Source: Clostridia bacterium (GTDB lineage: Bacteria; Bacillota; Clostridia; Christensenellales; Borkfalkiaceae). From it: a DNA stretch of 64,000 bases. The DNA lies in contig JAJPYR010000052.1 of NCBI GenBank assembly GCA_021204825.1, forward strand, positions 550 to 64,549, read 5' to 3'. This document shows, piece by piece, positions 5,711-23,906 of the stretch. The notes under the pieces are model-generated. The model was given only the letters and a program-made list of their open reading frames with translations, had not been told where the DNA came from and did no database searches. How positions within the stretch are numbered: position 1 is the stretch's first letter; every line of letters starts with the position of its first letter. Both the position numbers and the translations under genes were made by a program.

Positions 5711-5952
5711 TTGTATTACCTCTTTCGCATAGATTTCACCCTGGATTTTAGTCATTTGGCCTGTGGAAGTCAACAGATAAATCCAGCAATTAACGTAAAT
5801 TTGTCGTATTCTGCAAGAGAAAATTTACACATATGTTGCAGCTGTCTGTTTTTCAGCGGCTTGCCGCCTTAAACCCTCATGCAGGCCATCCTCCGCCGGC
5901 AGCATGAAGTGCGGCTCATATGAAAAAGCCCGGGCAGTGCCCGGGCCGGAGG

Positions 5953-7767
5953 TCATTTCCTGCCTGTTTTTGTTTTGGACCTGGCCTTTTTGCCCTTGGG
6001 CTTGGATGTGTCCGGCGTAAGGTCCGGGAAGAACAGCTTTTCCCAGCTCTGGGCGGAGTACAGGGCAGAGCAGTTGGAGTAGAGCTTCTTGTATTTGCCG
6101 TAGAAGAACAGAAACTGGAATACGGTGCGGATAGTGGCCCGGCGGTACTTGCGGCGCTGGGCTTTGTCGAAGGTGCATACATAGCCCTGGCGGCGGACAG
6201 GGTCATAGTTAATGATGGTTTTTTTGCGGAAGCAGTCCATGGCTGCCGGATTTCCGGCATCCGTCACAACCGTTTCATCGGCCAGCATGGAAGGGGGGAA
6301 GTAAGCCTCAAGGAACATTATGACCCTCCCGTGCCGTTTCTTGTCATCGCCGGCGTCATCCGGACGCTCATAATTGAGGTCCTCTATGCCGTACAGAGTC
6401 TCGAGGGTCTCCTTGTCCAGATATACGGGCGCCTTGTCATTTATGACCTTGTTCAGTATAACGGGGTCTGTCCTGGTTAAGAATGACGGGCCTTTTTTGA
6501 CATCCAGAAAAGACCTGTATATGAGCTCCACGCTCATGTAGTTCTTGAGGACCAGCCCTTTGAACATGAAGTATGCGTAGTTTATGGCTGCCTTGAAACG
6601 GCTGCACTTATGGTGCATTATGGCCGTTATAAGGAAATTGCGCCTGGAGTAATAGTCCAGCACTCTGGAGTACTTGTTGTCAAAGTCCTGGTGCCAGACA
6701 GCAAGGCCGTTCATTAAAATGAGCTCCTTGTACGTGCGCAGGCCGTATTCTATATCATCGGATTTTATGAAGAACGGCATCGGAAGGCCGTAATCCTGCA
6801 CAAAGTGCGCAGGCATGCAGCAGTACCACCAGGCATTGTAATCCGGCGTGTCTGCATCCTGGTTCTTAAGAAGGTTTTCTTCCAGGCGCATGTCCAGGTC
6901 CTTGTTCACGGACTTTAGGGAAAGCCCGTTGAACAGTCCGCCGAACTCATGCTGCATGTAGGGGTGGGAGAGCTTCAGCATGACGCCGCCAACGGCGGCA
7001 TCCTTGTGCTCCTCCGTCAGGGCACAGAGTATGTTATATGTGCGTTCTATTGTGCCGAAGCTGAACTGGATGTCATCATCCATAAGCAGCATATGGGTGT
7101 ACTCTTCATGCCTGGAGAGCTCATACATGCCCCTTGCAAAGCCGCCGCTCCCTCCAAGGTTGCGGTTGGGATATACCGTATACAGAGGATCTTCTTCCCA
7201 CGCAAGGGTCTCTGCGTTGTCCACAATGAACACATGAATCCTGTCTGCCCAGACGGGGTTTTTCTGTATGGCCCCCCGGAGCTTCTCCATATTGGCCTTA
7301 AGGAACTCTTCCCTCTTATAGGTGCATATTACAAGTCCCAGCTTGACTGGCCTTTCCGGCTCTTTTTCCGTCTCCCAGCGTGCTCCGTGGAAGACGCATG
7401 CAGAGGCAGCTGTTATGGTGAAGTATAAAAAGCTTCCCATCTTGGTGTCCGGTATTACTGTGGACACGATCCCCCTGCCCTGCCTGAAGTCTGATACCAG
7501 CTCGTGCGGTTCCCCGTTCTGGTCCATGCAGAAGATCTTTACGGTATATATGCCTGTGATGTCCAGATATAATACCGGTTTGTCTATGCCACAGTAATGG
7601 TAATACTCATAATACGGGTACAGATTAAAGAAAGTGCTGAAAGAGACTGTGTCCCCGCACTCTATTCTCAACGTATTATACTGCCTGCTGTGCCTGGCTT
7701 TTCCCCTGTAAAAGAGCTCATTAAGCTCTGTGCTGCCATCTCCCAGCGTTATATCATACAACTTCAC
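5953..7767 (-). CDS. Large GT2-family glycosyltransferase, GlfT2-like (galactofuranosyltransferase-like)
   Basis: 604 aa with LVICTYKREEF, FIVDNAE, NLGGSGGFARG and LLMDDDI motifs, as in bifunctional GlfT2-type GT2 enzymes (recognised from memory). Confidence 0.7.
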   Translation of the reverse strand: MKLYDITLGDGSTELNELFYRGKARHSRQYNTLRIECGDTVSFSTFFNLYPYYEYYHYCGIDKPVLYLDITGIYTVKIFCMDQNGEPHELVSDFRQGRGIVSTVIPDTKMGSFLYFTITAASACVFHGARWETEKEPERPVKLGLVICTYKREEFLKANMEKLRGAIQKNPVWADRIHVFIVDNAETLAWEEDPLYTVYPNRNLGGSGGFARGMYELSRHEEYTHMLLMDDDIQFSFGTIERTYNILCALTEEHKDAAVGGVMLKLSHPYMQHEFGGLFNGLSLKSVNKDLDMRLEENLLKNQDADTPDYNAWWYCCMPAHFVQDYGLPMPFFIKSDDIEYGLRTYKELILMNGLAVWHQDFDNKYSRVLDYYSRRNFLITAIMHHKCSRFKAAINYAYFMFKGLVLKNYMSVELIYRSFLDVKKGPSFLTRTDPVILNKVINDKAPVYLDKETLETLYGIEDLNYERPDDAGDDKKRHGRVIMFLEAYFPPSMLADETVVTDAGNPAAMDCFRKKTIINYDPVRRQGYVCTFDKAQRRKYRRATIRTVFQFLFFYGKYKKLYSNCSALYSAQSWEKLFFPDLTPDTSKPKGKKARSKTKTGRK

Positions 7768-17147: not shown

Positions 17148-18194
17148 TCATCTCTTGATGTCGTAGTTCTGGTTCATAAGGGTCTTTATGGACTCTTCAT
17201 CGTCCGTTATGTTGAAGTCACCGTGCATCGTATGCTTGATGACGGAGGATGCCACGGCGAAGTTCACGAGGGTGTCCGGGTCCATCTCACGCATCATGCC
17301 GAAGATCATGCCGCTGGCGAACGCATCCCCGCCGCCCACGCGGTCCAGGATGGAGAAGCGGAACAGGTTGCTCTCAAAGGTCTCCCCATTGTACCACATG
17401 AATGCCTTAAGGGAGTTCTCGCTGCCGCTGTGGACGTATCTCAAATGCCTGCCTATGGCCTTGAAGTTGTAGCGGTTGTGAAGCTCGCGGAATATCCTGT
17501 CCTGCTCCTTGTAGGAAGGGTACGGGGGCAGGGCGTCCTTCATATCCACGCCGTTCTCGTCCCTTAGGTTGAGGGGCTCTATGCCGAACAGCACATCTAT
17601 GTACGGCAGGTATGTGGTTATGCAGTCCCTGGCTTCCTGCCATCCCCACAGCGCAGACCTGAAGTTGCAGTCAAAGGACACGGTAAGACCTAAGTCCTTT
17701 GCTGCCTTCAGGGCGTACATTGTGAGGTCTCTGCAGTTCTGCGACAGCGCCGGCGTGATGCCGGACATGTGCAGCCAGGTGAAGCCCTTGAGAATCTTCT
17801 CAAAGTCCACCTGCGAGTAGTCATACCTTGAGAACGCGGACCCCTTGCGGTCATAGAACACCTTCGAGGACCTTACGCCGAAGCCTTCCTCGAGGTAGTA
17901 TATTCCAAGCCTGCCGCCCTGTGCATAGATGCAGGGGGAGCAGTGCACGTCATTGGATCTCAAATATCTTATGGCGGCCTTTCCGAGCGCCGTGTCCGGC
18001 ACTACAGAGAAGAATGTGGCATCCACGCCAAGGTTTGCAAGCGCTGCAGCCACATTGGCTTCTGCGCCTCCGTATGTTATGCCGAACGTTGTGGCGTTCT
18101 TAAGCTTTTCATAGTTGGGGGGCGTAAGCCTCATCATGACCTCGCCCATAGTTATGAACCTGTTTCCGGCCAGGCTCTTTTCCTGCTGTTCCAT
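17148..18194 (-). CDS. kdgK: 2-dehydro-3-deoxygluconokinase (PfkB family)
   Basis: Start MEQQEKS with SD AAGGAG 7 nt upstream. YGGAEANVAAALANLG and GGGDAFASGMIFG motifs. Confidence 0.8.
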   Translation of the reverse strand: MEQQEKSLAGNRFITMGEVMMRLTPPNYEKLKNATTFGITYGGAEANVAAALANLGVDATFFSVVPDTALGKAAIRYLRSNDVHCSPCIYAQGGRLGIYYLEEGFGVRSSKVFYDRKGSAFSRYDYSQVDFEKILKGFTWLHMSGITPALSQNCRDLTMYALKAAKDLGLTVSFDCNFRSALWGWQEARDCITTYLPYIDVLFGIEPLNLRDENGVDMKDALPPYPSYKEQDRIFRELHNRYNFKAIGRHLRYVHSGSENSLKAFMWYNGETFESNLFRFSILDRVGGGDAFASGMIFGMMREMDPDTLVNFAVASSVIKHTMHGDFNITDDEESIKTLMNQNYDIKR

Positions 18195-18382
18195 TCTGTC
18201 TCTCCTTGAGAAGTCTGTGCGACACTGTTTTTCCTGCGGGCAAATCTCTTTGCTCAATCATTATACTACACCCGTCTCATTTTGTACAGGGGGCAAATCT
18301 TTTAGCTGTAATTGAAAAGAAGGGGTAACTTAACAAAATAGAGATTTTTACGATAATAAATGCAAATACTGTTCGTTTTTAA

Positions 18383-18411
18383 TTGACATTATAATAATTT
18401 CCGTCTAAAAT
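18383..18411 (+). promoter_or_regulatory. Promoter of XRE/ImmA operon
   Basis: TTGACA (18383-18388), 17 nt, TAAAAT (18406-18411). Followed by a GGAGG SD and the ATG at 18435. Confidence 0.6.
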
Positions 18412-18434
18412 AGGTATCGGAATGGAGGTATATC

Positions 18435-18749
18435 ATGACGGAGGATAGTTTAGGGGGGAGAATGACCGCCTTGTTGAATAGTCAGAACATGACTCAAAAG
18501 GAGCTTGCAGAAAAGGCGGGGATAACAGAGGCCGCAATATCGCATTATATCAAAGGGGATCGTTATCCAAGGTCGTATGTTTTATCAAGGATAGCAGCAG
18601 TTTTAAACACCACAACGGACTATTTAATCGGGGCCACAGGAGAGAATGATGAAATTGCCAATGCTAAAACGTTGCTTGCAAGAAACGCTTCAACAATGAC
18701 AATGCGTCAGAAAAAAGAGATAATGGATATTTTGTTTCCGGATGATTAG
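18435..18749 (+). CDS. XRE-family HTH transcriptional regulator
   Basis: LNSQNMTQKELAEKAGITEAAISHYIKGDRYPRSYVLSRIAAVLNTTTDYLIG (Cro/C1 HTH). Confidence 0.9.
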   Translation: MTEDSLGGRMTALLNSQNMTQKELAEKAGITEAAISHYIKGDRYPRSYVLSRIAAVLNTTTDYLIGATGENDEIANAKTLLARNASTMTMRQKKEIMDILFPDD

Positions 18750-18752
18750 TGG

Positions 18753-19346
18753 ATGGCTATGTATCTTGAGTATGAGACATATGAATATATAAAAGGTGAG
18801 GCTGTAGCGGTATTTAAGCAATATAGCGATTTGTCCTATCCAATTAATGCTTTTGCCGTGGCCAAGGACCTTGGTATTATTGTTGTGCCATATTCAAGTT
18901 TAGCTGATGACATGATGGAAAAATGCATGCAAGAAAGTAAAGATGGGTTTTACTATCCAGGTGATTTTTTTGATGACGAGAACACGACGGATCATATTTA
19001 CTATAATGATTCACAAGTTGAAAGTAGAATAACTTACACTATATTGCATGAGATAGGACATGTAGTGCTTGATCATGAACCAACGACTAATCGTGGACTG
19101 ATAGATGATGATAGACGCGAGGCGGAAGCAAATTTCTTTGCTAAGTATATTCTTGCTCCACCCCCGCTTGTTAATCTGATAATGCCACAGGGTCCAAAGG
19201 ATATAGTCAAATGGTTTCATGTTAGTAAGGAAGCAGGCCAATACGAATACACATATTATCAAAAGTGGCTTGATTTGCCATTTCATATGTATACAGAGTA
19301 TGAATCTTATCTTATAGATAGATTTGCCTGTTGCTTTAATAAGTAA
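18753..19346 (+). CDS. ImmA/IrrE-family (M78, COG2856) zinc metallopeptidase
   Basis: HEIGHVVLDH (HExxH) followed by EAEANFFAKYILAP. Starts 3 nt after the XRE gene. Confidence 0.85.
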   Translation: MAMYLEYETYEYIKGEAVAVFKQYSDLSYPINAFAVAKDLGIIVVPYSSLADDMMEKCMQESKDGFYYPGDFFDDENTTDHIYYNDSQVESRITYTILHEIGHVVLDHEPTTNRGLIDDDRREAEANFFAKYILAPPPLVNLIMPQGPKDIVKWFHVSKEAGQYEYTYYQKWLDLPFHMYTEYESYLIDRFACCFNK

Positions 19347-19432
19347 GTTGAGGTCTTGGTCCACATATCTATGGTGGGCATAAATACATTGACGCGAGCT
19401 GTATTGATACTACCAATGTTAATGCAGCAGAT

Positions 19433-19474
19433 GGAGATATGAATCCTTTGAGTAAGTTTTCATTTCATATCTCC
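19433..19474 (+). repeat. Dyad motif copy A (GGAGATATGAA-20 nt-TTCATATCTCC) containing conserved 22-mer GATATGAATCCTTTGAGTAAGT
   Basis: Perfect 11-bp arms. Located 39 nt upstream of the DUF4417 ATG. Confidence 0.85.
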
Positions 19475-19512
19475 AATATTGTAAATTATAAAAACTTTTA
19501 TAGGAGAGAGAA

Positions 19513-20283
19513 ATGAAAAAAATCTCGAAGAAAGTCCACCATAAAGATGGATCTGTTTCCCGTTGCCCTGAAGATATTTATCGTCTTCTGAATCTCAGTG
19601 TATTGCATTACACGAATATGACACACAGTGCAGAAGGAACGGATATGCCTGTTGTGCCTTGTGATACGCATTTTATCCCGGATTTCCTGGCTCTATACAG
19701 TGAACCAGGATTGTATCATAAAACACCATTAACTGCTGTGTGTTTCTATGAGTATGATTATCTGTTTGATGATATAGATGGAATATACAACGCAATCTAT
19801 TACAACAAGAAGGATTTGCTGGACAGATACAGGGAGAGATTCAAAGATGTCCGCATCTTCATATCGCCGGATTACTCGGAATTTGGTGATTTACACAAGC
19901 CGGAGAATGAATACAGACTGTGGAAAGCCAGAATAGTATCGCTTTGGATTATTAATGATCTTAAAGCAATTCTCATCCCTAGTATAACGTATGTATCAAG
20001 GGAGACTTTCCCTTTTTATTTTAGTGGATTGGAAGATTGTTCTGTTGTTGCCTTCAGTACAAAGGGGCATATCAGGAACAAAGAAGACAGGGCTTTGCTT
20101 GTTGCTGCAGTAAAGTATGCTGTTGACCATCTTCCTCTCAGTACAATAGTTGTTTATTCGGTGTGTGGTCATGACGAGACTTCATTGGAGTTGTTCCGCT
20201 ATGCAAAGGAGAAAGGTGTTGATGTTATAATCCCAAATAACTCTTTACGAGAGCGCAATATGGGAAGGTGCTCTCATGAATAG
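19513..20283 (+). CDS. DUF4417-like protein (function unknown)
   Basis: 256 aa. The pattern ...FYEYDYLFDDIDGIYN...ISPDYSEFGDLHKPENEYRLWKARIVSLW...IPSITYVSRETFPFYFSGLEDCSVVAFST... matches my memory of the DUF4417 family. Its stop overlaps the start of gene X (ATGAATAG). Confidence 0.6.
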   Translation: MKKISKKVHHKDGSVSRCPEDIYRLLNLSVLHYTNMTHSAEGTDMPVVPCDTHFIPDFLALYSEPGLYHKTPLTAVCFYEYDYLFDDIDGIYNAIYYNKKDLLDRYRERFKDVRIFISPDYSEFGDLHKPENEYRLWKARIVSLWIINDLKAILIPSITYVSRETFPFYFSGLEDCSVVAFSTKGHIRNKEDRALLVAAVKYAVDHLPLSTIVVYSVCGHDETSLELFRYAKEKGVDVIIPNNSLRERNMGRCSHE

Positions 20284-20801
20284 CGGCGCATGCAAGCTGA
20301 CAAACGGGCTTGAGGGATTACAGCTTAGCATTAACCAGATTCAAACCATAAATCAGATTTATGAAAACGAGATTGCTTTAGCTGATAAGATATCCGCAGA
20401 GGAGAAGCGCGATTTCTACATGAATAAGTTAGCAAAATCATGTCCTATATCAATCCCTTCAGATACAGAGATTAAATACCAAACTAAGGAAGGGTACATG
20501 CAGGTGACATACACATTTGGCGATGAGAATGTAAAATTTTCATGTAGATGGCATACAAGAAACCCAAAGGCAGCGAAGAAAACAAAAAGCTGCGTGCTAT
20601 TGGGTAATAGAAAAGCATTATATGGGCATAGGGGCAGGTGTGAATCATAGACTATCTGGACGTTATGTTTTGACTGGATTTTCAACTAATGGAGAGCCCA
20701 TATGGACAACCATTGATGATTGGAACAATGCGAAATATGCAAAGTCTACAACAGAAGCACAGAGGCAATTACTGGATGCTGGGCATTGGGAATACAAGTG
20801 A
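20276..20801 (+). pseudogene. Gene X copy 1, frameshifted after the A-run at about 20584-20595
   Basis: Frame 2 ends at 20650 (…KKTKSCVLLGNRKALYGHRGRCES*). Frame 0 from about 20595 continues CYWVIEKHYMGIGAGVNHRLSGRYVLTGFSTNGEPIWTT...DAGHWEYK*, collinear with the C-terminus of intact copy 2. Confidence 0.75.
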
Positions 20802-20925
20802 GTTTTATTGTAAACTCTCCGATCCAATTTTGGATATGCGTTAAAAAATAGGGATGCTGTTTGCATTAAATATTCTCCATAATGAAAAAGCCCGATGAGT
20901 GCTACCAACACCCACCGGGGTAAAG

Positions 20926-20957
20926 GATATGAATCCTTTGAGTAAGTATATTCATAA
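20926..20957 (+). repeat. Dyad motif copy B (same 22-mer, shorter 7-bp stem)
   Basis: GATATGAATCCTTTGAGTAAGT is identical to copies A and C. It lies 46 nt upstream of the Y copy 1 ATG. Confidence 0.8.
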
Positions 20958-20992
20958 TAATATCAAAATTATTTGTTGTCAAGTTTATTTTT

Positions 20993-21409
20993 ATGAGCGG
21001 ACAGCGTATTTACGTGAGGTATAGGACATTGATTATATTTAATTTACCAGATTACAGATTCTATGATGGCTTTGAGGGAGAGGGGGAACTGGAGCTTGAT
21101 TTAGATGGGAATAGAGAAGAATCAATCCATATTTGGGAGGGGTATCTCAATGATGTGCTGCATGACCCAGACTTGAGTGGCAACGGCTGGACTGGTTTCA
21201 TGAGGGACTGGCAGCAAGGTGAAAGAACTCTGGATTCATACAGACAGAATGTTCCCATAGAAGATATAGATGAGTATATAGCGGACTGGAAGCAGTATGA
21301 GAACAGACAATTTATGTTTCCAGACTCCAAAGAATGCTATGAGTTCATTCTGGCTTTCCTGGAATACGCCAAATCCACGGGCCGCATAATATATGCTACA
21401 TACTGGTAA
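20993..21409 (+). CDS. Gene Y copy 1, small acidic protein of unknown function (immunity-like by context)
   Basis: 138 aa ending ...ECYEFILAFLEYAKSTGRIIYATYW*. Paralogue of 22558-22935. The true start may be the TTG at 21029 (LIIFNLPDYRFYDG). Confidence 0.65.
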   Translation: MSGQRIYVRYRTLIIFNLPDYRFYDGFEGEGELELDLDGNREESIHIWEGYLNDVLHDPDLSGNGWTGFMRDWQQGERTLDSYRQNVPIEDIDEYIADWKQYENRQFMFPDSKECYEFILAFLEYAKSTGRIIYATYW

Positions 21410-21436
21410 TCACACAGGAAGACAGCAGGAGACACA

Positions 21437-21589
21437 ATGAAAGTTGCTTTGGACATAAGCACCGTTACTTGCGAGGATATAGACTTCACGCCCCTTAATG
21501 AGACTGCAGCTTCAATGCTCCCTTCGGTGAGAATCCAGATGCCTTTAATGAAAATATAGATGCCATTATAATCGACAAGGTCTAACATA
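21437..21589 (+). pseudogene. Degenerate 5' fragment of the 2-hydroxyacid dehydrogenase gene
   Basis: ATGAAAGTTGCTTTGGACATAAGCACCGTTACTTGCGAGGATATAGACTTCACGCCCC is near-identical to the start of the gene at 22962, including the upstream GGAGACACA SD. It then decays with indels and stops. Confidence 0.85.
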
Positions 21590-21625
21590 AGCTGTGTTAA
21601 TACTACCAATTTTAATGCAGCCAAT

Positions 21626-21667
21626 GGAGATATGAATCCTTTGAGTAAGTTTTTATTTCATATCTCT
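21626..21667 (+). repeat. Dyad motif copy C
   Basis: GGAGATATGAA...TTCATATCTCT, 10-bp arms, same 22-mer. Confidence 0.85.
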
Positions 21668-21706
21668 AATATATATAACTTTACATCAATTTTATTGGAG
21701 AGAGAA

Positions 21707-21844
21707 ATGAAAAAAATCTCGAAGAAAGTCCACCATAAAGATGGAGCTGTTTCCCATTGCCCTAAAGATATTAATCGTCTTATGAATCTTATTTCTCATA
21801 ACTCTTTACGAGAGCGCAATATGGAGAGGTGCTCTCATGAATAG
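21707..21844 (+). pseudogene. In-frame deletion remnant of DUF4417 gene (45 codons: N-terminal ~28 aa joined to C-terminal ~15 aa)
   Basis: MKKISKKVHHKDGAVSHCPKDINRLMNL / ISH / NSLRERNMERCSHE*. It keeps the SD, the ATG and the ATGA-type overlap with gene X copy 2. Confidence 0.8.
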
Positions 21845-22370
21845 TGGTGCATGCAAGCTGACAAGCGGGCTTGAGGGATTACAGCTAAGCATCAACCAGA
21901 TTCAAACCATAAATCAAATTTATGATAATGAGATAGCTCTTGCAGATAAGATATCCGCTGAGGAGAAGCGTGATTTCTACATGAACAAGTTAGCTAAATC
22001 ATGTCCCTTATCAATCCCTTCAGATGCAGAGATTGAGTATCAAACCAAGAATGGGTACATGCAGGTGGCATATACCTTTAGTGATGATAATGCTAAATAT
22101 ACATGCAGATGGCATACAAGAAATCTCAATGCCATGAACAAAACAAAAAAGGCTTGCTATTGGGTTATTGAAAAGCATGTAATGGGGAAAGGCTATGGCA
22201 AGGATTACCACCCTGCAGGGTGGTATGTGCTGACTGGTATTTCAAATAATGGAGAGCCTATATGGACAACAGAAGTTGAGTGGAGAAAAGCACGAAATGC
22301 AAATTATAATAATCATGCAACAGAAGGGCAAAAGGAATTGCTCGAGTCTGGACACTGGGAATACAAATAA
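21837..22370 (+). CDS. Gene X copy 2 (intact), 177-aa protein of unknown function (toxin-like by context)
   Basis: The N-terminal ~57 aa are nearly identical to copy 1 and the C-terminal third is much more diverged. Conserved CRWHTRN and GHWEYK* features. No family recognised. Confidence 0.7.
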   Translation: MNSGACKLTSGLEGLQLSINQIQTINQIYDNEIALADKISAEEKRDFYMNKLAKSCPLSIPSDAEIEYQTKNGYMQVAYTFSDDNAKYTCRWHTRNLNAMNKTKKACYWVIEKHVMGKGYGKDYHPAGWYVLTGISNNGEPIWTTEVEWRKARNANYNNHATEGQKELLESGHWEYK

Positions 22371-22454
22371 CTATATCCAAGGATGAAATATTTTCCGTGC
22401 AATCGAGAATGTGTAATAAAAAAGGAAGTTAAGACCTCGCTATCGAGAACAAAA

Positions 22455-22473
22455 ATCAATTCTTTGAATAAGT
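22455..22473 (+). repeat. Degenerate dyad-motif copy D
   Basis: ATCAATTCTTTGAATAAGT matches ATGAATCCTTTGAGTAAGT at 16/19 positions, upstream of Y copy 2. Confidence 0.5.
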
Positions 22474-22557
22474 GTTTTAATGAAATTATAAACATTAAGT
22501 TTTCGAATACAAGTGAGAAGTTTAGAGACTAAACAACAAAAAGTAGGCTATTTGATT

Positions 22558-22935
22558 ATGGATATGTTTAATTTACCCGATGATCGCTTTTATAACGGCT
22601 ATGAAGATGAACCCGAAGTGGAGCTTTCATTGGATGGCAACGAACAGGAGTCTATCCATATTTGGTTTGGTTACATATCGGATATCTTGGATCATCCTGA
22701 TTTGAGCGGCAACGGATGGACAGGTTTTATGCGGGATTACCAGCAGGGTGAACGTACTATCGAAAATCTTGGCCAAATTGTTCCTATAGATCTGGATGAG
22801 TATATTGCAGACTGGAAGCAATATTCGGACAGGGTTTTTGACTTGCCGGAGACCAAGGAATGTTATGATTTCATCCTTGCCTTCATGGAATACGCCAGGC
22901 GTGAGGGCCGTACCGTCACCGTGACATACTGGTAA
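22558..22935 (+). CDS. Gene Y copy 2, small acidic protein of unknown function (immunity-like by context)
   Basis: MDMFNLPDDRFYNGYEDEPEVELSLDGNEQESIHIW...GNGWTGFMRDYQQGERT...ECYDFILAFMEYARREGRTVTVTYW*. The upstream 15 codons of the track ORF (GTG start) are less likely. Confidence 0.65.
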   Translation: MDMFNLPDDRFYNGYEDEPEVELSLDGNEQESIHIWFGYISDILDHPDLSGNGWTGFMRDYQQGERTIENLGQIVPIDLDEYIADWKQYSDRVFDLPETKECYDFILAFMEYARREGRTVTVTYW

Positions 22936-22961
22936 ACACACGGAGAACAGCAGGAGACACA

Positions 22962-23906
22962 ATGAAAGTTGCTTTGGACATAAGCGCCGTTACATGCGGG
23001 GATATAGACTTCACGCCCTTTGAGGAACTTGGAGAGGTTGTGCTCTTCAATGAGCCCTCGAAGGAGGAGCTGCATGCGCTTGCCGCGGACACAGATGCCA
23101 TTATAGTGAACAAGGTCCTTATAGACAGGGACTTTTTGGCGCATGCGCCTTTGCTCAGATACGTGGGGCTGTTTGCTACAGGGTACAACAACATAGACCT
23201 GCAGGCGTGCAGGGAGAGGGGCATAGTGGTTTCAAACGTGCCCGCATATTCCACAAACGCCGTCACACAGCATGTCTTTGCCCTTCTGCTGTCCCTTATG
23301 GGAAAGATACCGGAATATGCTGCATCCGTGCAGCAGGGAGACTGGATACGCAGCAGGGCGTTCTGCTACTTCCCCTGGCCAACATATGAAATCTCCGGCA
23401 AGACATTCGGCATCATAGGATACGGCAGCATTGGAAGGAGCGTGGCCAGGGTGGCGGACGCTTTCGGATCCAGGGTTATTGTCAACACCCGCACAAAGCC
23501 TCAAGACTGCGCGTATGAGCTCGTGTCCAAGGAAACCATATTCCGCACAGCGGACATTGTGTCGCTGCACTGCCCTCTCACAGACCAGACAGCAAAGCTT
23601 GTGAACGCAGACACCCTGGCCATGATGAAGCCCACGGCGTACCTTGTCAACGCCGCCCGCGGAGGCCTCGTGGATGAGCCGGCCTTGGCCGCCGCCCTCA
23701 ACGAAGGACGCATAGCGGGAGCGGGAGTGGACACCATCTCAGAAGAGCCCATGAAGGCCTCCAACCCTTTGCTTGGCGCAAGGAACTGCATCATAACACC
23801 CCATATAGCCTGGGTGCCGCATGAGACCCGGGACAGGCTTGTTCATACCGCCCTCTCCAACCTCAAGGCATTCCTTGCAGGCAGGCCGCAGAATACAGTC
23901 TCTTAA
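22962..23906 (+). CDS. D-isomer-specific 2-hydroxyacid dehydrogenase (glycerate/hydroxypyruvate reductase-like)
   Basis: GIIGYGSIGRSVA NAD motif, ...NAARGGLVDE..., ...ITPHIAW catalytic His region. Confidence 0.85.
   Translation: MKVALDISAVTCGDIDFTPFEELGEVVLFNEPSKEELHALAADTDAIIVNKVLIDRDFLAHAPLLRYVGLFATGYNNIDLQACRERGIVVSNVPAYSTNAVTQHVFALLLSLMGKIPEYAASVQQGDWIRSRAFCYFPWPTYEISGKTFGIIGYGSIGRSVARVADAFGSRVIVNTRTKPQDCAYELVSKETIFRTADIVSLHCPLTDQTAKLVNADTLAMMKPTAYLVNAARGGLVDEPALAAALNEGRIAGAGVDTISEEPMKASNPLLGARNCIITPHIAWVPHETRDRLVHTALSNLKAFLAGRPQNTVS

Follow-up and report, generated by a model that had tools for sequence, protein, structure and literature searches.

A putatively repressor-gated DUF4417 island of a Clostridia bacterium as a candidate polymorphic toxin-immunity array

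Introduction

Polymorphic toxin systems, among them CdiA-CT/CdiI of contact-dependent inhibition (CDI), Rhs, the LXG toxins of the type VII secretion system (T7SS) and the MuF-toxins, combine a constant N-terminal part with swappable C-terminal toxins, carry a co-varying cognate immunity gene immediately 3' of the toxin, and leave orphan immunity genes (PMC3482391). We analyzed a 64,000-nucleotide stretch (the window) of contig JAJPYR010000052.1 from a metagenome-assembled genome (MAG) of a Clostridia bacterium (GCA_021204825.1), in which an AT-rich island encodes an XRE-family repressor, an ImmA/IrrE-type M78 peptidase, a DUF4417 protein and two successive copies of a gene pair that we call X and Y. 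A first-pass annotation had read this island as an XRE/ImmA-gated polymorphic toxin/immunity pair linked to DUF4417, and comparison across genomes supported that reading. As judged from the sequence comparisons, the functional unit is predicted to comprise DUF4417, a small basic toxin built of a constant leader and a swappable domain, and an acidic immunity protein specific to that domain. The island appears to represent a widespread, apparently undescribed variant of the polymorphic toxins, in which DUF4417 and a short leader would replace the trafficking domain and an XRE/M78 switch would gate expression.

The likeness to polymorphic toxin systems extends to toxin domains that are shared across delivery systems (X, EndoU, Ntox50 and DUF6883) and to displaced or orphan cassettes in tandem; the cassettes of the window share their upstream region, the ends of DUF4417 and the leader. 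The architecture differs, however. In classical polymorphic toxins the polypeptide itself includes a large domain for trafficking or secretion, or a large repeat domain, whereas here a leader of ~35 residues is accompanied by a separate, translationally coupled DUF4417 protein of 255 amino acids (aa). In addition, the toxins are only 130-190 aa long, there is no linked secretion system, the module has its own XRE/M78 switch, and it occurs in both monoderm and diderm phyla.

For this switch the closest described systems are CapH/CapP, a DNA-damage-triggered repressor-peptidase switch of anti-phage operons, and ImmR/ImmA of ICEBs1, a repressor-peptidase switch that responds to DNA damage and shares its signals with prophage induction. 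The island has in common with them an XRE repressor gene beside a gene for an M78 HExxH peptidase, directly 5' of a putatively toxic operon, and the occurrence of fused and split forms across loci. CapP has a second (GAF) domain with a cysteine-switch loop, and the match obtained here covered the peptidase domain of CapP. The cargo differs from that of both systems, being a toxin/immunity cassette instead of CBASS, BREX or mobile-element transfer genes, and at some loci a Fic protein, or a protein of 124-189 aa, stands in place of the switch.

The SOS-inducible operons of nuclease colicins and S-pyocins are stress-inducible, as the island is predicted to be, and encode a nuclease-type toxin (a predicted activity in the island) with a linked, co-made acidic immunity protein, and a possible separate promoter for the immunity gene was seen in the window. 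In contrast to these operons, the island lacks a lysis gene as well as domains for receptor binding and translocation, its toxins consist of leader and toxin domain only, its regulators are XRE/M78 and not LexA or PrtR, DUF4417 is an extra component, and the module is spread over several phyla. Tripartite toxin-antitoxin-chaperone (TAC) and other three-gene toxin-antitoxin (TA) systems also consist of three small, co-transcribed cytosolic proteins, one of them a toxin and one an inhibitor, with a third protein that acts via a short recognition segment. In TAC the SecB-like chaperone acts on the tail of the antitoxin, whereas the island has its constant segment on the toxin, with an enzyme-like partner, and its toxins match inter-cell toxins in repertoire and polymorphism.

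Results and discussion

DUF4417 is linked to exchangeable candidate toxin and immunity genes in many genomes

A word-indexed protein search with DUF4417 returned 306 homologues at E<=1e-5, typically with a length of 255 aa and an identity of 45-64%. When genomes were scanned at one per species, 96 DUF4417 loci were found, 80 of which were fetched; the identity of the DUF4417 homologues at these loci was 40-65%. The hosts were mostly gut and rumen MAGs and belonged to Bacillota, Bacteroidota, Fibrobacterota, Actinomycetota, Spirochaetota and other phyla, with MAGs assigned also to Negativicutes, Mollicutes and Treponema. Cultured hosts were Eubacterium ruminantium ATCC 17233, Lachnospira multipara LB2003 and Fibrobacter intestinalis ATCC 43854, and a further host was a Coriobacteriaceae genome not labelled as a MAG.

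The gene order was strongly conserved: the open reading frame (ORF) 3' of DUF4417 overlapped or abutted it in 69 of 72 loci, and the next ORF overlapped or abutted this putative toxin ORF in 57 of 59. The overlap of DUF4417 and X, from which the first-pass annotation had proposed translational coupling, was present at both junctions of the window as the ATGA-type sequence ATGAATAG, and such coupling implies that DUF4417 would be made in step with the toxin. The spacers between X and Y in the window are ~190 nt long, which is unusual among the loci compared. A programmed frameshift fusing DUF4417 to the toxin was considered and rejected, the toxin frame being +1 in 46 loci and +2 in 26.

The first downstream protein was 130-190 aa long and carried a conserved leader of ~35 residues with the consensus MrgsnSGLAhGTsGSPQxSLEQxEyxaKaxENE (core …SGLAHGTSGSPQ.SLEQ.E…), of which the window copy is a diverged version. 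When a hidden Markov model (HMM) of this leader was used, it matched 75 ORFs, every one immediately 3' of a DUF4417 gene or remnant; the rest of the flanks contained none. The C-terminal parts behind the leader formed 14 clusters. X was carried by 22 of the 80 genome loci and was also present in metagenome contigs, and the other leader-borne toxins included EndoU_bacteria (2.7e-26), Ntox50 (9.7e-27), DUF6883 (2.4e-17) and several unassigned domains. DUF6883 has recently been classed as the ribonuclease (RNase) BECR-Tox3, and is often fused to the phage MuF head protein. The conserved N-terminus that had been noticed in X is therefore real, but more specific than first described, as it is a DUF4417-tied leader that also stands on other toxins. 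Since the DUF4417-X-Y linkage recurs in these independent genomes and contigs, the reservation attached to the first reading, that the linkage might be found in no other genome, does not hold.

The second downstream proteins fell into 15 clusters (including DUF7674 and a pentapeptide-repeat protein), which corresponded essentially one-to-one to the toxin clusters in 59 loci. At all 23 X-type DUF4417 loci where an ORF had been called behind the toxin, this ORF was Y, so that the predicted co-variation of toxin and downstream protein was observed, with Y always the partner of X within DUF4417 modules. The median net charge was +6 for the toxins and -12 for the downstream proteins. From these sequence relationships, Y is most likely the cognate inhibitor of X. 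The DUF4417 proteins of loci L031 and L067 were 96% identical and yet were followed by different toxins, indicating recent cassette exchange.

Leader identity tracked that of DUF4417 with a Spearman coefficient of 0.35 (Mantel p 0.001), and with one of 0.32 when only loci carrying different toxins were compared. A distant DUF4417 subfamily (L002, L003 and L087) was paired with a second leader, MGxGxxxNFGxTKGS, on the same X domain. Leader and DUF4417 together appear to occupy the place that trafficking domains hold in classical polymorphic toxins. The GC content of the module was below that of its flanks in 61 of 71 loci (p 4e-10).

We found no description of a DUF4417-toxin-immunity system in a literature search. 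DUF4417, X and Y had no match in PADLOC-DB v2 at E<=0.1, where only the regulators were matched, and no model in NCBIfam; X and Y also gave nothing in Pfam or PHROGs. The suggestion that the module lies outside described families agrees with these searches.

X is an Ntox30-like domain found at the C-termini of polymorphic toxins

For X, the word-indexed protein search detected nothing beyond X itself and the paralogue X1, and an exhaustive phmmer search against 1.84 billion representatives was therefore required. This yielded 222 relatives, 58 of them at E<=1e-10. In these proteins of 96-2478 aa, the part aligned with X residues ~50-175 invariably lay at the very C-terminus, and the long X-domain proteins had prePAAR/PAAR, RHS-repeat, TcdB/SpvB+RHS and extracellular contractile injection system (eCIS)-core architectures. 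This position on Rhs, PAAR, TcdB and eCIS-core proteins bears out the initial proposal that X is a polymorphic toxin domain. Either DUF4417-linked leader was present in 16 of 149 X-domain representatives, all of 96-279 aa and none a large multidomain toxin.

In an alignment of 36 family members P61, Y74, R91, H93, G117, W143 and L169 were invariant and W92, T94, G172 and H173 nearly so, and X2, the intact copy in the window, keeps all family-invariant residues. The RWHT and GHW motifs, which had been singled out as the landmarks of X, are invariant or near-invariant family-wide.

The closest described domain is Ntox30 (PF15532), a predicted all-beta, two-histidine RNase with an RxH motif and without a known immunity protein (Zhang et al. 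2012, PMC3482391). Weak hits, all below threshold and confined to the N-terminal half of Ntox30, were obtained with 7 of the 36 members (best E-value 0.0015). Individually scanned members scored 13.6-14.7 bits against a cut-off of 25, over profile positions 5-57 of 103 only, and X2 itself had no match at E<=1. Like Ntox30, X is mainly beta, has the RxH motif (R91, H93) on a beta-strand, and is found C-terminally on toxins of the Rhs, type VI secretion system, T7SS and TcdB types. It differs in that no counterpart of the second Ntox30 signature, 'R, THIP', was present, the X alignment containing no THIP-like motif and X ending in two helices and GHW, and in that X has Y whereas Ntox30 has no assigned immunity family. 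Because the C-terminal half of X does not fit Ntox30, we term X Ntox30-like and not an Ntox30 member. X is most likely a distant relative of Ntox30, and a putative metal-independent RNase acting through R91-W-H93 and G-H173-W. The earlier statement that X and Y could not be assigned to any family stands insofar as neither has a Pfam family; X, on the other hand, is now tied to polymorphic toxins.

An AlphaFold2 (AF2) model of X2 had a mean predicted local distance difference test score (pLDDT) of 85.6, with values >90 over most of the toxin domain, and showed a six-stranded sheet followed by two helices, with residues 1-40 poorly ordered. Foldseek found no neighbour of this model in the PDB (best E 0.17), and PDB sequence-profile searches with the alignments of X, Y and DUF4417 gave no match.

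At one locus (L004, 4899-6549) an X-like/Y-like cassette has no DUF4417 leader and carries an N-terminal '...AAKLARLADK...' motif common to other X homologues. This cassette precedes an Ntox50 cassette and an ORF of 103 aa, and adjoins two large minus-strand genes. The locus has the appearance of an orphan-cassette array belonging to another toxin system with the same X domain.

Y frequently occurs as an orphan gene

Our Y-based survey covered 44 Y genes for which 1.5 kb or more of the sequence 5' of the gene was available, and 24 of these had no X upstream. In two groups of orphan Y genes the ratio of nonsynonymous to synonymous divergence (dN/dS) was 0.11-0.25 over synonymous divergence (dS) of 0.06-1.2, indicating that these orphans are maintained by purifying selection, in varied contexts. 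No known toxin/immunity islands were found around the orphan Y genes. Fic genes lay near three of them.

Two further proteins of 370-372 aa (P0240 and P0243, in clusters of 28 and 5 member sequences; locus L170, 1051-2163) have DUF4417 fused directly to a Y-like domain with no toxin between, and represent either a stable toxin-less form or a decay intermediate. These fusions, the dead X1 beside an intact Y1 in the window, and a related genome that has only Y (L001, see below) fit an orphan-immunity pattern. In the window itself, a promoter-like site (TGGAGA-18-TATAAT, 10/12 matches) lies at 22281-22310, inside the 3' end of X2 and 5' of Y2. If it serves as a separate promoter, it could free Y2 from the repressed operon.

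DUF4417 is predicted to be an enzyme-like cytosolic protein

Residues 44-216 of the window protein matched positions 8-166 of 183 of PF14386 with 58.2 bits against a cut-off of 28.9, which confirmed its identification as DUF4417. Its AF2 model (pLDDT 86.8, predicted template modelling score 0.83) consists of repeated beta-alpha units. Invariant residues lie at or just after the strand ends (D57, D82, D86, D120, S122, S182, K184 and C218), and R140 and C176 are also invariant. Foldseek gave weak TIM-barrel-like matches in the PDB, the best being UlaE (probability 0.97, template modelling score 0.42), and only unnamed proteins among viral models. A hydrophobic stretch of the protein is modelled as a buried helix that is amphipathic and charged, and it is therefore not read as a transmembrane segment. 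On the basis of its model, DUF4417 looks like a cytosolic, enzyme-like alpha/beta protein.

Regulation and candidate modes of action

The XRE protein had its best PADLOC match to capH (6.7e-13) and matched an RstR-like NCBIfam model at 1.3e-15, below the cut-off of that model. The M78 peptidase, which is 197 aa long and ends in ...ACCFNK, matched capP (8.4e-12) in its peptidase part only (profile positions 9-127 of 242). Genes for XRE and/or M78 proteins were located directly 5' of DUF4417 in 52 of 78 loci with upstream sequence, and these regulators were either separate or fused as an HTH+M78 protein (HTH, helix-turn-helix) of ~360 aa. Six loci (L002, L010, L020, L044, L052 and L081) had a Fic_N+Fic protein of 200-406 aa instead of XRE/M78, and eight other loci had a protein of 124-189 aa without a Pfam match 5' of DUF4417.

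We give roughly an even chance to the reading that the island is a repressor-gated, DUF4417-anchored polymorphic toxin-immunity array that acts between cells. In this model, the XRE repressor would keep the operon off, and the adjacent M78 peptidase would cleave the repressor on a stress signal, which by analogy with ImmR/ImmA and CapH/CapP would be DNA damage or single-stranded DNA. DUF4417, toxin and immunity protein would then be made near-stoichiometrically through the translational coupling that the gene overlaps provide. The obligate linkage and co-variation suggest that DUF4417 would recognize the constant leader, in the manner of the N-terminal trafficking domains of Rhs, CDI and LXG toxins. 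The toxin would act on cells without the matching Y, and Y would protect the producer and its kin. Action between cells is favoured by the apparent origin of all identified toxin domains in the secreted polymorphic-toxin repertoire, by putative immunity genes that lie 3' of the toxin and co-vary with it, by the swapping and stacking of cassettes, and by orphan Y genes that appear to be under selection.

Several observations weigh against such action between cells. No secretion, lysis or phage-particle genes recurred beside the 80 loci, and no signal peptide, transmembrane or hydrophobic segment, or Pfam trafficking domain was found in the toxins. The module occurs in both monoderm and diderm hosts, a pattern seen more with intracellular conflict systems than with delivery specific to one envelope, and CapH/CapP-like regulators are known from anti-phage operons. 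The modelled DUF4417 resembles an enzyme and not a carrier, with invariant Asp, Ser, Lys and Cys at strand ends. The co-variation of leader and DUF4417 could result partly from plain linkage, and with one toxin and one DUF4417 copy dead the local array may be partly decaying. Finally, toxicity, neutralization, leader binding and induction are themselves predicted properties.

A second and less probable explanation is that the island is an intracellular, inducible tripartite toxin-antitoxin or abortive-infection defence module. Phage attack or DNA damage would here cause M78 to remove XRE, and DUF4417 would be a sensor or activator that holds, releases or processes the leader-tagged toxin. The RNase would shut down the infected cell, and Y would be the antitoxin that spares uninfected cells. 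Such a role would agree with a self-contained cassette that has no linked secretion genes, is spread over phyla with different envelopes, bears the low-GC signature of an acquired island, and has restriction-modification (RM), AbiEii-like or WYL genes among some of its neighbours. The regulators best match capH/capP of CBASS-type operons, and such regulators gate immune operons on DNA damage; moreover, RNase effectors are common in abortive-infection systems. However, toxin and immunity genes are translationally coupled and would thus be induced together, which leaves no obvious way to free the toxin. The gene order, the acidic, structured immunity proteins and the one-to-one polymorphism are hallmarks of inter-cell toxins and not of known defence systems, and the same goes for the swapping of cassettes, their tandem arrangement and orphan immunity genes under selection. 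All toxin domains that could be identified belong to the repertoire of polymorphic toxins, and it is only the regulators that have PADLOC matches. We consequently rank action between cells first and an inducible toxin-antitoxin or abortive-infection module second.

The two units of the window are a mosaic

Unit 1 consists of an intact DUF4417 gene, a frameshifted X1, an intact Y1 and a pseudo-copy of the dehydrogenase 5' end, and unit 2 of a DUF4417 remnant followed by intact X2 and Y2. The claim that DUF4417-X-Y is present twice was hence right for X and Y, of which there are two copies each with both Y genes intact, but X1 is frameshifted and the second DUF4417 is a remnant of 45 codons. X1 was broken by an indel of net +1 nt at ~20580-20600 into ORFs of 124 aa and 59 aa, which the X-family HMM matched over profile positions 11-91 and 84-155, respectively. 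A simple homopolymer slip does not account for the indel, and an assembly error is possible as the source is a MAG; the public annotation of this MAG (Clostridia bacterium, LUD51_03555) likewise gives a 124-aa product for X1. DUF4417 copy 2 has an in-frame deletion of profile positions 29-239 (83% lost), with the overlap with X2 kept.

With the frameshift repaired, X1 and X2 were 96.5% identical over residues 1-57, 66.7% over residues 58-105 and 62.3% over residues 106-177, and Y1 and Y2 were 67-68% identical. These values agree with the initial description, namely near-identity of the X copies over the first ~57 aa followed by decay, and Y copies about two thirds identical. Between the units dS was 0.06 in the 5' remnant of DUF4417, 0.62 in the X leader (dN/dS 0.04) and ~1 in the X toxin domain (dN/dS 0.24), and it was saturated between Y1 and Y2. 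A simple recent tandem duplication was rejected because dS runs from 0.06 to saturation along the repeat unit. Most likely the two units are a mosaic, produced when homologous recombination at conserved flanks, including the dehydrogenase side, placed diverged alleles of one island in tandem. At the right end of unit 1, positions 21417-21501 are 91% identical to 22942-23026 on the side of the resident dehydrogenase gene, and the degraded continuation reads '...DAIIIDKV'.

The related genome L001 (GCA_965308025.1; kdgK 86% identical at the nucleotide level) has a single Y gene (1854-2234) at the same site between kdgK and dehydrogenase. This gene is a chimera of Y1 and Y2: the first two thirds share 87-98% identity with Y1, and from the rear part of the gene into the dehydrogenase gene the sequence is 88-97% identical to unit 2 of the window. 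A deletion between Y1 and Y2 in a window-like array would leave exactly such a gene. The comparison suggests a recent exchange of island alleles between the lineages of L001 and the window. The Y1-like part of the L001 gene is closer to the window than are the flanking housekeeping genes (82-86%). Tandem stacking was also seen at L083, with DUF4417 at 2020-2670 and 5890-6666, and at L089, with X at 1438-2100, Y at 2081-2461 and DUF4417 from 2434.

In the favoured reading, the working set in the window would be DUF4417 of unit 1 with X2 and Y2, with X1 dead and Y1 kept as an extra immunity gene. It is unlikely that the tandem array, with its dead X1 and deleted DUF4417, is a decaying relic, that is, neutral debris conferring at most residual immunity. 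The frameshift in X1, the 83% deletion in DUF4417 copy 2 and the dehydrogenase pseudo-fragment would all be expected of a relic, as would the loss of everything but Y in L001 and the toxin-less DUF4417-Y fusions found elsewhere. Nevertheless, a complete set of XRE, M78 peptidase, DUF4417, X2 and Y2 is intact and correctly coupled, DUF4417 copy 2 was shortened in frame with its overlap with X2 retained, the dN/dS values between the copies are low in the X leader and toxin domain alike, and X2 has lost none of the family-invariant residues.

DUF4417 proteins of phages are distant relatives

Phage DUF4417 proteins were 23-30% identical to that of the island and are ParB fusions encoded just 5' of terminase/capsid genes. 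They include proteins of Streptococcus phage IPP53 (L171, 2838-4659) and the mycobacteriophage hits H1-H19, some of them at the left end of the genome; in IPP53 the gene after the ParB-like gene overlaps it by 20 nt. The island-type subfamily was found at 1 locus in 2.9 million viral contigs. A phage origin was rejected on account of this single match and of the low identity and ParB fusion of the phage proteins.

The least probable explanation is that DUF4417 is packaging-associated and loads the leader-tagged toxin into particles of a co-induced prophage or an infecting phage, with the toxin entering the next cell together with the phage DNA and either weaponizing the particles against competitors or poisoning phage progeny: the location of the phage ParB fusions, the frequent fusion of the linked toxin DUF6883/BECR-Tox3 to MuF, the signals that XRE/ImmA switches share with prophage induction (established for ImmR/ImmA) and the independence from envelope type that phage delivery would explain all point in this direction, but the phage proteins are distant and of different architecture, hardly any viral contig carries the subfamily, prophage genes do not recur in the surroundings of the modules, and a role of DUF4417 as a virion protein is without support.

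Features of the island and its surroundings

The features of the island and its flanks are collected in Table 1. The island had been described as an AT-rich block between GC-rich kdgK and dehydrogenase genes, and its GC content was indeed 0.36-0.43 over 18.25-22.9 kb, compared with 0.53-0.58 in these flanking genes. Also as described, it opens with a promoter-like sequence, which was the best-scoring site of the region, followed by an XRE gene and a separate gene for an ImmA/IrrE peptidase with an HExxH motif. Promoter-like sites in the region numbered 18, with 17.3 expected, and were not above chance. The M78 peptidase gene starts 3 nt past the XRE stop codon and is separated from the DUF4417 gene by a gap of 166 nt. 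Within the leader region 5' of DUF4417 there are an 11-bp inverted repeat (19433-19443 / 19464-19474) and a 22-mer (19436-19457). The likely start of Y1 is a TTG at 21029 after GAGGT; the ORF from the ATG at 20993 would be 138 aa.

Table 1. Positions of the genes and predicted elements of the island and its flanks in the window.
Feature	Position	Strand	Remarks
PfkB/kdgK-type kinase gene	17148-18257	-	left flank
Promoter-like site TTGACA-17-TAAAAT	18383-18411	+	11/12 matches; 24 nt before XRE start; predicted
XRE-family HTH repressor gene, 104 aa	18435-18749	+	Pfam HTH_3 2.6e-14
ImmA/IrrE-type M78 zinc peptidase gene, 197 aa	18753-19346	+	Peptidase_M78 5.9e-11; HEIGH at residue 99
Leader region 5' of DUF4417	19397-19512	+	second copy at 21590-21706 (repeat families D5 and D7)
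DUF4417 gene, 256 aa	19513-20283	+	PF14386 9.5e-16; sole intact copy in the window
X1 toxin pseudogene (leader and Ntox30-like domain)	20276-20801	+	ORFs 20276-20650 and 20622-20801, in different frames
Candidate antisense small RNA gene	20883-20982	-	promoter-like site, seed, terminator; predicted function
Y1 putative immunity gene	21029-21409	+	Y-family HMM 2.3e-48
Pseudo-copy of 2-hydroxyacid dehydrogenase 5' end (~150 nt)	21438-~21585	+	right end of unit 1
DUF4417 remnant, 45 codons	21707-21844	+	HMM positions 1-28 and 240-255
X2 intact putative toxin gene, 177 aa	21837-22370	+	leader/linker 1-57, toxin domain ~58-177; R91, H93, T94, H173
Y2 intact acidic putative immunity gene, 125 aa	22558-22935	+	Y-family HMM 2.9e-51; identical to P0003
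2-hydroxyacid dehydrogenase gene	22962-23906	+	right flank; start codon 26 nt past Y2 end

A candidate antisense small RNA (sRNA) is encoded on the minus strand between X1 and Y1, with a promoter-like TTGACA-17-TATTAT at 20982-20954 and a terminator hairpin at 20919-20891. Its 22-nt seed is exactly complementary to the 5' untranslated regions of DUF4417 (19436-19457) and of the DUF4417 remnant (21629-21650), and the predicted RNA of ~65 nt, at 20883-20947, folds at -26.1 kcal/mol (z -4.4). Rfam had no family for this sRNA and none in the island, and the 22-mer was absent from all other fetched loci. From its complementarity, the RNA may be a lineage-specific antisense brake on the expression of DUF4417 and the toxin.

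Beyond the five-gene module, the 123 neighbouring proteins held 120 different Pfam families; most of them were housekeeping proteins and a few were of the RM, AbiEii-like or WYL kinds, and no extra gene recurred in or beside the module among the 80 loci. A linked secretion system, integrase or prophage was rejected, as nothing recurred at these loci beyond Fic, HTH and a few RM/Abi genes. Membrane or secreted localization of the toxins was likewise rejected, no toxin having a hydrophobic segment.

Significance

Tentatively, and with more doubt than confidence, we consider that DUF4417 and the leader of ~35 residues might constitute an unrecognized mode of deploying polymorphic toxins that is independent of envelope-spanning secretion systems. 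One possibility within this proposal is that DUF4417 modifies the leader-tagged toxin or carries it onto a generic vehicle such as co-induced virions or released DNA; another is that DUF4417 is a leader-dependent activator, which frees immunity-bound toxin only in invaded cells. If true, secretion-independent deployment would explain how the module functions in monoderm and diderm bacteria alike, and would provide a first function for DUF4417 and define a new toxin-system family that is common in the microbiomes of gut and rumen.

The island gives a first functional context to DUF4417, which has until now been noted mainly as a fusion partner of phage ParB. It also adds two new protein families, the Ntox30-like putative toxin X, with a confident AF2 model that has no PDB neighbour, and its putative immunity protein Y. 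The module is a compact, self-regulated and horizontally mobile cassette that occurred at 96 loci in a one-genome-per-species collection, and HMMs of the leader and DUF4417 are a simple handle for mining toxin/immunity pairs from metagenomes. Its predicted toxins bear every evolutionary hallmark of inter-bacterial weapons and yet have no visible export route, which is a conceptual challenge; the action of DUF4417 on the leader would reveal either a new principle of delivery or a new class of inducible suicide or defence systems.

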